Positions 15,001-18,000 of a DNA stretch of 64,000 bases are shown piece after piece (position 1 is the stretch's first letter; the number at the start of each line of letters is the position of its first letter). Made by a program: the position numbers. The DNA is from Escherichia coli (GTDB taxonomy: Bacteria > Pseudomonadota > Gammaproteobacteria > Enterobacterales > Enterobacteriaceae), in assembly GCF_044324785.1 (NCBI RefSeq), contig NZ_CP172127.1, one strand, 5' to 3'.

Positions 15001-18000
15001 TGTAGTACCAGTTGATGCCAAATGTGCCGACAGTACAAAGAATACCAATGATGACAGCCCAGTCATTCAGGGAGAGAATGCCACCCATCGCAGTCAGTCC
15101 TCCGAAACTGTAACTGAACCATTCTCTGATTTTGTCCATACGGTACATGCTCTACCCCTTCATTGAGGGGATTTGCTCTATTTAATTAGGAATAAGGTCG
15201 ATTACTGATAGAACAAATCCAGGCTACTGTGTTTAGTAATCAGATTTGTTCGTGACCGATATGCACGGGCAAAACGGCATGAGGTTGTTAGCGCAGCCTC
15301 TTGCCACCCGCTTTCACGAAGGTCATGTGTAGAAGGCCGCAGCATAACTATCACTGATGAATTCAGGATAGCCAGTGGCTACGGCTCAGTTATGGTGCTG
15401 GTTAACGGACTTGAACCGCTAGCCATTCGCTTACAAGGCGACCGCTCTACCATTGGAGCTAAACCAGCATGTTTGGCGGGACAGCGTGGACTCGAACCAC
15501 GATAAGAAGGTTAACAGCCTTCCGTAATGACCTTTATACGACTGACCCGAATAAAAAAAGCCACCGTTGCAACTTAAGAGTCACTAACGGCAGCTTACCT
15601 TCTAATTATTGCTAAATGGATAATTGCATGTCAAGGCTTTTAACAGCAACATGCTTAACTTTCTCAACACGTTTACGCATTTTGAAAGCATTTTGCATTG
15701 GCTGGTACAAAACAAATAACGATGCTTTCAGGATGTCGTCAATTTCGTTTCTACAGGTTGCCAGTGAAGGTTTTCTCCATCCCTCGCCACCACGTCCACA
15801 CATCTTGCGTGGCTTTGCAGTCGCGTGATAGTAGGATGCAATTGCTCGCTTAGATGAACCATGAGCGTAGTAGCTGAGGAGGATGCCAAAGGCTTTCTTG
15901 TCAATGCACATGACGGAATCGACGACCTGAGAAATCAACATTCCATCATCATCATTGCACATTGGCCTTGTCATAACTCTTCCCGGCTCTACGCTCTCCA
16001 TGAACTTCGCTATTACGCTGCTCATGCGCTTTTCCAGACGACCTGAATAAACCCATGCGCCCCACAGTTCAAGCCAGCCATTCAGCCACTCATGCTGTTC
16101 TTTGGTGAGGTTTAGTTCTCTTATGCCCACTCGCCTTCTCCCTGTACCTGAATCAATGTGAGGTTTCCGCAGAACACTGAGCCGGTATCGATATACATTT
16201 GGTTGGCAAATTTAAGTGGTTTCACTGCTGGCGTATGACCAAAGATAAACGTGTCCGCGCCTTTAATTTCTTTCACGATCCCGTCTTGTGAGTTGCTGAT
16301 TCGTTCGCGGTTCCAGATTACCTGCTGATGATCAACTGGCTTTCCAAATTCGTATTCGTCACAAGGATAATCGGCGTGGCAGATGACATATTTTTTACCT
16401 TTGCTCACCAGTTCGATGATTAACGGAAGTTCTTCTGCTTTATGGGCAAGAGCTTTAGCCAGAATTTCTTTGTCGTAATCGAGATTAAAGAACCAACTAC
16501 CGCCATTAAGCAGCCAGTGATTGACGTTTCCACGCTCTGATAAGCCATCAATCATCATTTGCTCATGGTTTCCACGTACAGCTCGGAACCAGGGGAATGT
16601 GATTAATTCCAGACATTCGACGTTCTCTGTACCGCGATCGACCAAATCGCCAACCGAGATAAGCAGGTCTTTTTTGGTGTCGAATCCTATCGTCTCCAGT
16701 TTTTTCATCAGGTTCGTGTAGCATCCGTGCAGATCGCCAACTACCCAAATATTTCGGTATTTGCTGCCATCAATTCTTTCGTAATAGCGCATCTCTTTCA
16801 CTCCATCCGCGATGAACCATGAGAACGTCGTTGACGATGGCGTGCATTTTCCCGTCTTTATCATCAACGTATTTTCTGACCGTACCGCGACTACATTTCA
16901 GTCTGCGTGCTACTTCTGTCTGGTTTCCGTATGCTTCAACGAGCATGTCTGGAATGGTTTTTACTGAGAACGTCATGCGGCCTCACTTCTGCTATTTCGC
17001 AGGTCTTTGAGTTTCTGTTGGTACTCTGCCTTGATCGCCTTGCACTCTTCGACAGTCCAGCGATGGCGGTTATGGTTTGATTCGATTTCGTCTACTGCTT
17101 CCTGCCCGATCCGGTTAATCAGTTCGACGCGATACGGAACGAGATTTCCGCTTTTATGCTGGTTGCACACCACGCATTGCTTGTGAATATTGCGTTCATC
17201 AAATCGGAGTTGAGGTGCCGCAGCAGTTGTCCGGTAATGCCCGGCATCCCACTGAGCAGACGTGAGCGTTCCGCATGAGATACATGGTAAGTCGCGGTCT
17301 CTTTCTCTGATGAAGGCGTTTACGGCTTGTTGGGCTTGTTTAATCCAGTAACTGCGGGGCTTTAAGGCGAGTTTTCGAATCTTAAGTTTATCTTTCTGTT
17401 TCTGCTCCTCTCGTCGTCGTTTCTTCTCTGCTGCTTTTTCCGCTTTTTCGCGTTCTTTGCTTCGTCATTCGAGTGCTATCTTGGTTCCACACTCTGGAGA
17501 GCACCACCACTGATTAGCGAATGCAGGGTGAAACCATTCCCGGCATTCATCGTTTTTACATCGTCTTCGCGCTGGTTTAGCCATTATGGTTCGCTCCAGT
17601 AATTCTCAATTGCAGCAGCCATTCTCTGCATCCACTCTGCCAGCTTTAACGCGGCTTCTCTTTCAGAACCACATTTAGGGAAATCCTTCATTTCCATGCT
17701 GGCCTTATATGTTCTGAATGCCAGGTCTCCGGTAATAACCAGCTCCTGATCAAGCACAGAGCGTTTATTCCGGTGTTGAACGTAATAGACAGATTCAGTC
17801 CGCATTTCTTCTCTGTCTTTTTTGAAGGAAATAAGCTCAGAGAAATCACTCATCGTCTTCTTCCTCGTACATTGAGCTATTCGGATCGCTCATCAGTTCT
17901 GCGCAGCAATCGGCGCACACGTGAACTTCCAGCACATGCAGCTTCTGACCGCAGTTAGCGCACGTTAAAGCCCGCTCGACGCTTTCTTTCTGGTATTGAA

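Follow-up and report, generated by a model that had tools for sequence, protein, structure and literature searches.

Lambda NinG/Rap and its counterpart in the window

The closest described system is NinG/Rap of phage lambda (NP_040639, Pfam PF05766), a protein that cleaves D-loops and Holliday junctions and stimulates phage-by-plasmid recombination (PMC3945230, PMC5714182) and that combines a zinc finger with a His-Me finger (PMC5714182). Deletion of rap from lambda left plaque size unchanged, and its loss reduced recombination 300-500-fold in the RecA pathway and 3-6-fold in the Red pathway (PMC3945230). A search of the PDB by sequence found no NinG structure. Some Stx2 phages, such as TL-2011c (L135, 257-817), encode a NinG of 187 residues of which the first ~60 are unlike those of lambda; it retains the cysteines of the zinc finger, has a shortened basic linker and is ~91 % identical over its C-terminal 139 residues.

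The ninG copy considered here is located at 16973-17584, on the minus strand, of the window, i.e. the whole stretch of 64,000 nucleotides of Escherichia coli DNA that was analysed. Its DNA was 98.5 % identical to lambda ninG across all 612 bases, it encodes the same zinc-finger and His-Me residues, and in the nin operon it is likewise flanked by ninF and ninH, with ninI and Q downstream. It differs from lambda ninG at codon 40, which is CGA in lambda and TGA here, and in its length, 203 codons with a single ATG against 204. The annotated start of lambda NinG lies one ATG upstream (204 aa), at a position where the window gene has ATA; the affected residue is therefore Arg41 in lambda and codon 40 here. 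The phage itself also differs from lambda, being P22/HK620-like and carrying an extra ORF of 89 aa between ninF and ninG.

The closest sampled alleles (99.0 % identity) were found in prophages of E. coli A11 (NZ_CP028763) and SW070919 (NZ_CM129861). The A11 prophage has its nin genes, the 89-aa ORF among them, in the same order as the window, and it shares the Q gene and a tRNA-Asn/Thr pair. Unlike the window copy, both of these ninG genes are intact and annotated 'recombination protein NinG'. In phages HK620, HK97 and vB_EcoP-611R6, the slot that follows ninF or roi and precedes ninH harbors instead a RusA-type cassette (ybcO-like HNH plus rusA), which belongs to an unrelated protein family and also supplies a junction-resolving function. 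In two P22-like phages closely related to the one in the window, this cassette lies at 18532-19181 (vB_EcoP-611R6, L125) and at 14063-14712 (HK620, L126), compared with 16973-17584 for ninG in the window. Such an exchange of one junction resolvase for an unrelated one is a classic form of mosaicism. Since rusA can stand in the ninG slot, NinG is expendable in this phage group; a resolvase of some kind may not be.

The features of the interrupted gene are as follows.

16973-17584, minus strand: ninG/rap frame, 203 codons plus stop, interrupted by TGA at codon 40 (from translation, Pfam and identity to lambda)
17465-17467, minus strand (TCA on the plus strand): premature TGA, codon 40, followed by C (from translation and alignment)
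17468-17584, minus strand: part still translated, 39 codons, comprising the N-terminal Cys4 zinc finger only
16973-17464, minus strand: part past the stop, 163 open codons, comprising the basic linker, an HTH-like region and the His-Me (HNH) finger
17156-17284, minus strand: His-Me finger/treble-clef core with C101, S103, C104, G105, H116, N132, C137, C140, N141 and H143, all past the stop
17171-17173, minus strand: first in-frame start past the stop, GTG at codon 138, opening a C-terminal fragment of 66 aa without C101-H116 (from the ORF list)

The minus-strand translation consisted of 39 codons, the TGA, 163 sense codons and the natural TGA, with ...SRSEAA as its last residues. When the stop was masked as Arg, the protein matched the Pfam NinG family (PF05766) over residues 1-197 with 306.4 bits (E = 1.1e-91; gathering cut-off 25.4 bits). 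The chance of a 163-codon frame remaining open past the stop is ~4e-4; because such a frame is improbable by chance and the gene is nearly identical to that of lambda, continuity across the stop is secure. Alignment with lambda ninG placed the TGA inside the NinG frame. The earlier note on this DNA, which had described NinG-like sequence on both sides of a TGA at codon 40 where lambda has Arg, was thus borne out on both points. When the window gene was aligned with lambda ninG and with the A11 and SW070919 alleles, column 118 displayed T in the window and C elsewhere, turning CGA into TGA, and was the only stop-forming column. By sequence, the gene is a lambda-type ninG/rap by descent, displaying all the sequence traits by which NinG/Rap is recognised bar the unbroken frame of ~200 aa that is a trait of the family and is absent here, and it is, as written, a pseudogene or nonsense allele.

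Coding capacity lost to the stop

The zinc-finger cysteines C9, C14, C28 and C32 were all present (at about 17489-17560), in the part that is still translated. Eight NinG proteins were aligned, namely those of the window, lambda, an Stx1 phage, TL-2011c, two Pseudomonas phages, one Klebsiella phage and one Flavobacterium phage. Residues invariant in this alignment were C9, C14, F18, P20, Q25, C28, R93, C101, S103, C104, G105, A114, H116, N132, C137, C140, N141, G146, L155 and E168. Of these, R93 and all that follow, hence every nuclease residue, are encoded downstream of the stop; the His-Me signature CxSCG...H...N...CxxCN is still encoded but lies beyond it. Position 40 itself was variable across the family (R, L, K or V).

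Translational restart was considered and rejected: the earliest in-frame start is the GTG at codon 138, and since the first ATG, GTG or TTG leaves only 66 residues without C101-H116, reinitiation cannot rescue the enzyme. The allele is thus probably null, in keeping with the word 'inactivated' used for it in the earlier note.

Look-up of the 39-aa product gave a single match, in a gene ended by a contig edge and not by a stop. The 66-aa remnant ORF was found in two public assemblies, L128 (ENA ERZ28566104) and L129 (Logan SRR16329052). These resemble the window in that ninG is broken, ninH and ninI are kept and the 66-aa C-terminal remnant is called as an ORF, but their lesions are different and both retain CGA at codon 40: ninG of L128 (1-630) has lost its 5' end, while that of L129 (about 700-1370) displays a deletion of one nucleotide in an A5 run at codons 10-11. 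As these lesions differ from that of the window, ninG breaks sporadically and by independent lesions.

Rarity and origin of the TGA codon

The stop was sought in several collections. An exact scan with a TGA-centred 34-mer returned no match in GTDB species representatives, in IMG/VR or in JGI metagenome contigs, while the same 34-mer with CGA was found in at least 120 IMG/VR viral contigs. A stop-centred probe of 91 nt matched at 1,630 sites, spread over 1,089 of the 5,426 complete E. coli genomes, in addition to 208 of 50,697 phage records; none of these genomes or records contained an exact match, the best displaying one mismatch. Related loci provided a comparison set of 97 full-length ninG copies representing 82 distinct alleles. 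CGA occupied codon 40 in all 94 copies that were ungapped at the site, and none of the compared full-length copies (82 distinct alleles) displayed a premature stop. The TGA allele thus appears to be private to the window among the collections compared.

Within the comparison set, position 118 was the only site at which the window base is private. The five remaining minority bases were all synonymous and each was found in other alleles, so that the predicted protein, stop aside, equals the family consensus; the closest alleles displayed five differences from the window gene once the stop was reverted. No second lesion has accumulated. A private stop among otherwise shared polymorphisms fits a recent C-to-T change, and the corresponding proposal of the earlier note therefore stands.

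The preferred reading, to which we assign a probability of roughly three in four, is that of a genuine and very recent CGA to TGA nonsense mutation in ninG/rap of an otherwise intact P22/HK620-like prophage at thrW, with Rap absent or nearly so and with a neutral effect. The C-to-T change would make codon 40 a TGA, translation would end just past the 39-residue zinc finger, and Rap, a structure-specific endonuclease of the His-Me-finger type that introduces nicks into D-loops and resolves Holliday junctions, would be absent, or present in traces through readthrough. With the nin operon repressed in the lysogen and Rap dispensable in lytic growth, the mutation would be effectively neutral and would not be purged. 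Because ninG is dispensable and silent in the lysogen, a nonsense allele would drift freely. The earlier note had called ninG an accessory recombination function of which the loss may be tolerated, and this agrees with the unchanged plaque size of the lambda rap deletion (PMC3945230). We infer that the base is real, the allele neutral and the phage still inducible.

A sequencing or assembly error, in which case the true base would be C (CGA, Arg) and ninG intact, is rather unlikely. The TGA allele is a singleton absent from all searched collections, its protein is identical to the family consensus apart from the stop, as an error would give, and a single substitution looks the same as a base-call or consensus slip; however, a real and very recent mutation predicts an identical pattern. 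The 64 kb displayed no other sign of poor consensus and the other prophage genes no frameshift, the host flank was filled by ORFs of ordinary length contiguous with annotated proA, proB, phoE, crl and frsA, and the site lies outside any homopolymer, all of which argues against an error, as does the fact that few random substitutions produce a stop. If the base is real, the stop might still be leaky: tRNA-Trp would read UGA-C at a low rate and yield some Rap(W40), making the allele a hypomorph and not a null, and even this little protein may be enough for a catalytic nuclease. Among the stop codons of E. coli, TGA is the one most prone to readthrough; mainly Trp is inserted, at context-dependent rates that range from less than 1 % to several per cent (PMC11126739). 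Trp may be tolerated at position 40, which is unconserved (R, L, V, K). The base after the stop is C. The combination of UGA and C, reportedly the weakest stop context according to Poole, Brown and Tate in 1995, is also used at the prfB frameshift site. As UGA-C is weak and position 40 variable, the allele may be leaky and not null. This reading is nevertheless decidedly improbable, because the stop was absent from every relative and hence displays no sign of selection or programming, no stimulatory structure was found 3' of it (z = -1.2), the product would reach a few per cent of the normal amount at best, most natural isolates carry an efficient RF2 allele, and the base promoting readthrough when placed after the stop was G, not C, in a reporter study of 2024 (PMC11126739).

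An extension of leaky termination would have UGA-C yield a few per cent of Rap(W40) on induction, as a down-tuned allele of a branched-DNA nuclease accompanied by a free zinc-finger peptide of 39 residues; we regard it as very improbable indeed. If true, the Rap(W40) allele would be a natural case of dosage tuning by a nonsense codon for a potentially harmful nuclease. Programmed recoding of the UGA, by selenocysteine or a dedicated suppressor tRNA and giving an intact protein by design, is barely credible. Only the UGA codon itself and the presence of two tRNA genes on the phage speak for it, and these tRNAs are Asn(gtt) and Thr(tgt), neither of them a suppressor. The 81 nt from the stop onward are purine-rich and their minimum free energy fold (-5.9 kcal/mol, z = -1.2) was no better than that of shuffled sequences, containing one 3-bp hairpin and no SECIS stem-loop just 3' of the UGA. 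Rfam detected three tRNAs only over positions 1-31000 and no family at the stop region. Homologues all displayed CGA (Arg) and never TGA or TGY, the distant ones having R, L, V or K, and neither UGA nor a Cys codon was found at the homologous position among the relatives compared. As to programmed readthrough, the coding sequence downstream is conserved while the stop itself occurs in the window sequence only. With no such hairpin, no Rfam family and no suppressor tRNA, selenocysteine insertion and programmed recoding are excluded as far as sequence can tell.

On the preferred reading, a phage gene that can be dispensed with has been lost in a single, ordinary event; this is nothing new in kind, nonsense mutations in accessory prophage genes being routine. 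The case illustrates cleanly how the decay of a prophage gene begins, with one nonsense change and no secondary lesions. For annotation, a ninG pseudogene or nonsense allele is preferable to two small ORFs. Provided that the base is real, the prophage would represent a natural rap-null or leaky P22-like phage, and comparison with a revertant could gauge the part of Rap in mosaic formation. Such a comparison would concern a phage of the Erf/Abc2 type rather than the Red type, lambda having already been measured (PMC3945230). The contribution of Rap within the Erf/Abc2-type phage group has, to our knowledge, not been measured.

The nin operon and the surrounding prophage

The genes and sites flanking ninG that bear on its expression and on the integrity of the prophage are listed below.

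16770-16976, minus strand: ninH, intact, its ATG overlapping the natural ninG stop (ATGA)
17584-17853, minus strand: 89-aa ORF 5' of ninG (PHROG 1258, no assigned function), its TAA overlapping the ninG ATG; annotated in E. coli A11
15612-16130, minus strand: Q antiterminator, intact, 3' of ninG-ninH-ninI in the same operon (Pfam Phage_antitermQ); 100 % identical to that of A11 over its full length
19299-19739, minus strand: ninB/orf recombination mediator, intact (Pfam NinB, full length)
25217-25672, plus strand: N-like antiterminator (PHROG 271, E = 2e-21)
27167-28700, plus strand: Erf-like annealing protein, SSB and Abc2 anti-RecBCD protein (PHROGs 1097, 44 and 656), all full length
29047-30521, plus strand: Xis-like HTH gene, integrase and thrW tRNA-Thr(cgt) attachment site; right prophage end

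The order on the minus strand was ninB, an MT-A70 methylase gene, ninE, ninX, ninF, the 89-aa ORF, ninG, ninH, the ninI phosphatase gene, Q and two tRNA genes. Pfam matches followed the lambda order (NinB, NinX, NinF, NinH, phosphatase, Q), with ninG between ninF and ninH. The two tRNA genes, tRNA-Asn(gtt) and tRNA-Thr(tgt), are located between Q and the holin gene (15393-15548, minus strand), and Q has a pR'-like promoter at 15634-15605. The same tRNA-Asn/Thr pair is also present in prophages of E. coli A11, SW070919 and 2023CK-01687.

Because of the premature stop, ~490 nt of message ahead of ninH, ninI and Q are left untranslated. The coding strand of ninG displayed no intrinsic terminator-like site. 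Polymerase modified by N overrides Rho-dependent polarity in lambdoid phages, and the N-like protein encoded here is expected, by analogy, to spare ninH, ninI and Q the polar effect of the stop. Because an N-like protein is encoded and ninG contains no terminator, Q should still be made and the phage should be inducible. A GAGG five bases 5' of ninH is a candidate ribosome-binding site of its own, so that ninH need not rely on translational coupling. The induced phage should still grow, with Q and its other genes intact and N-type antitermination acting against polarity, but it would be expected to recombine far less via the RecA pathway.

The best phage matches were vB_EcoP-611R6, HK620 and CUS-3 (96-97 %), with Sf6 among the weaker ones (95-97 % overall). 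Judging from these matches, from its P22-type head, packaging and ejection genes and from its place at thrW, the prophage is a podovirus of P22/HK620/Sf6 type (Lederbergvirus type) and not a lambda. Its integrase gene (29271-30431), which is overlapped by the Xis-like HTH gene as in a related prophage, abuts tRNA-Thr(cgt) at 30446-30521, and this is followed by proA-proB-phoE-crl-frsA. The prophage genes compared cover 698-30431, and the prophage continues leftward beyond the window. Genes for portal, terminase, scaffold, coat, gp4, gp10, gp26, gp14 and gp7 were full length, and nearly all other prophage genes with a close homologue aligned end to end when compared with the ORFs of 127 related loci. 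A tblastn screen for in-frame stops returned many, but save for position 17467 these were found only in spurious off-frame reference ORFs; 17467 was the single stop site backed by many real genes (92 references). General prophage decay was rejected, as neither the gene-by-gene length comparison nor the tblastn screen uncovered a second broken gene. The earlier note had said that the rest of the prophage looks intact; this was upheld for the ~30 kb that are visible and applies to that part only, because the prophage extends past position 1 of the window.

None of the 5,426 complete E. coli genomes contained the entire prophage. The 6-kb host flank (30400-36400, proA-proB-phoE-crl-frsA) displayed at most 98.4 % identity to any of them.

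Several further observations were made along the window. The ejection genes (1-2083, minus strand) were mosaic: the homologue of gene 20 is open and matched HK620 over the first 289 of 461 residues only, and the gene in the position of gene 16, which runs off the window, had an N-terminal part of 232 residues without match in the P22-like phages compared. An ORF of 161 aa between the lysis genes and terminase (13118-13603, minus strand) belongs to PHROG 4284 and matched Pfam MUG113/T5orf172 (GIY-YIG-like); it had no full-length homologue in the related loci compared and could represent a moron or a nuclease of the homing type. Opposite the pL operon, after the N-like gene, an ORF of 167 aa (25665-26168, minus strand; PHROG 1244, no Pfam family) occupies the place that hkaP, a putative superinfection-exclusion gene, has in HK620. 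On the host side, a gene for VgrG (702 aa) was followed by one for an Rhs protein of 1,409 aa (DUF6531, RHS repeats, RHS core) at 54411-60815 on the minus strand, with a GC content of up to 0.63; its predicted products mark the locus as one for type VI secretion effectors.
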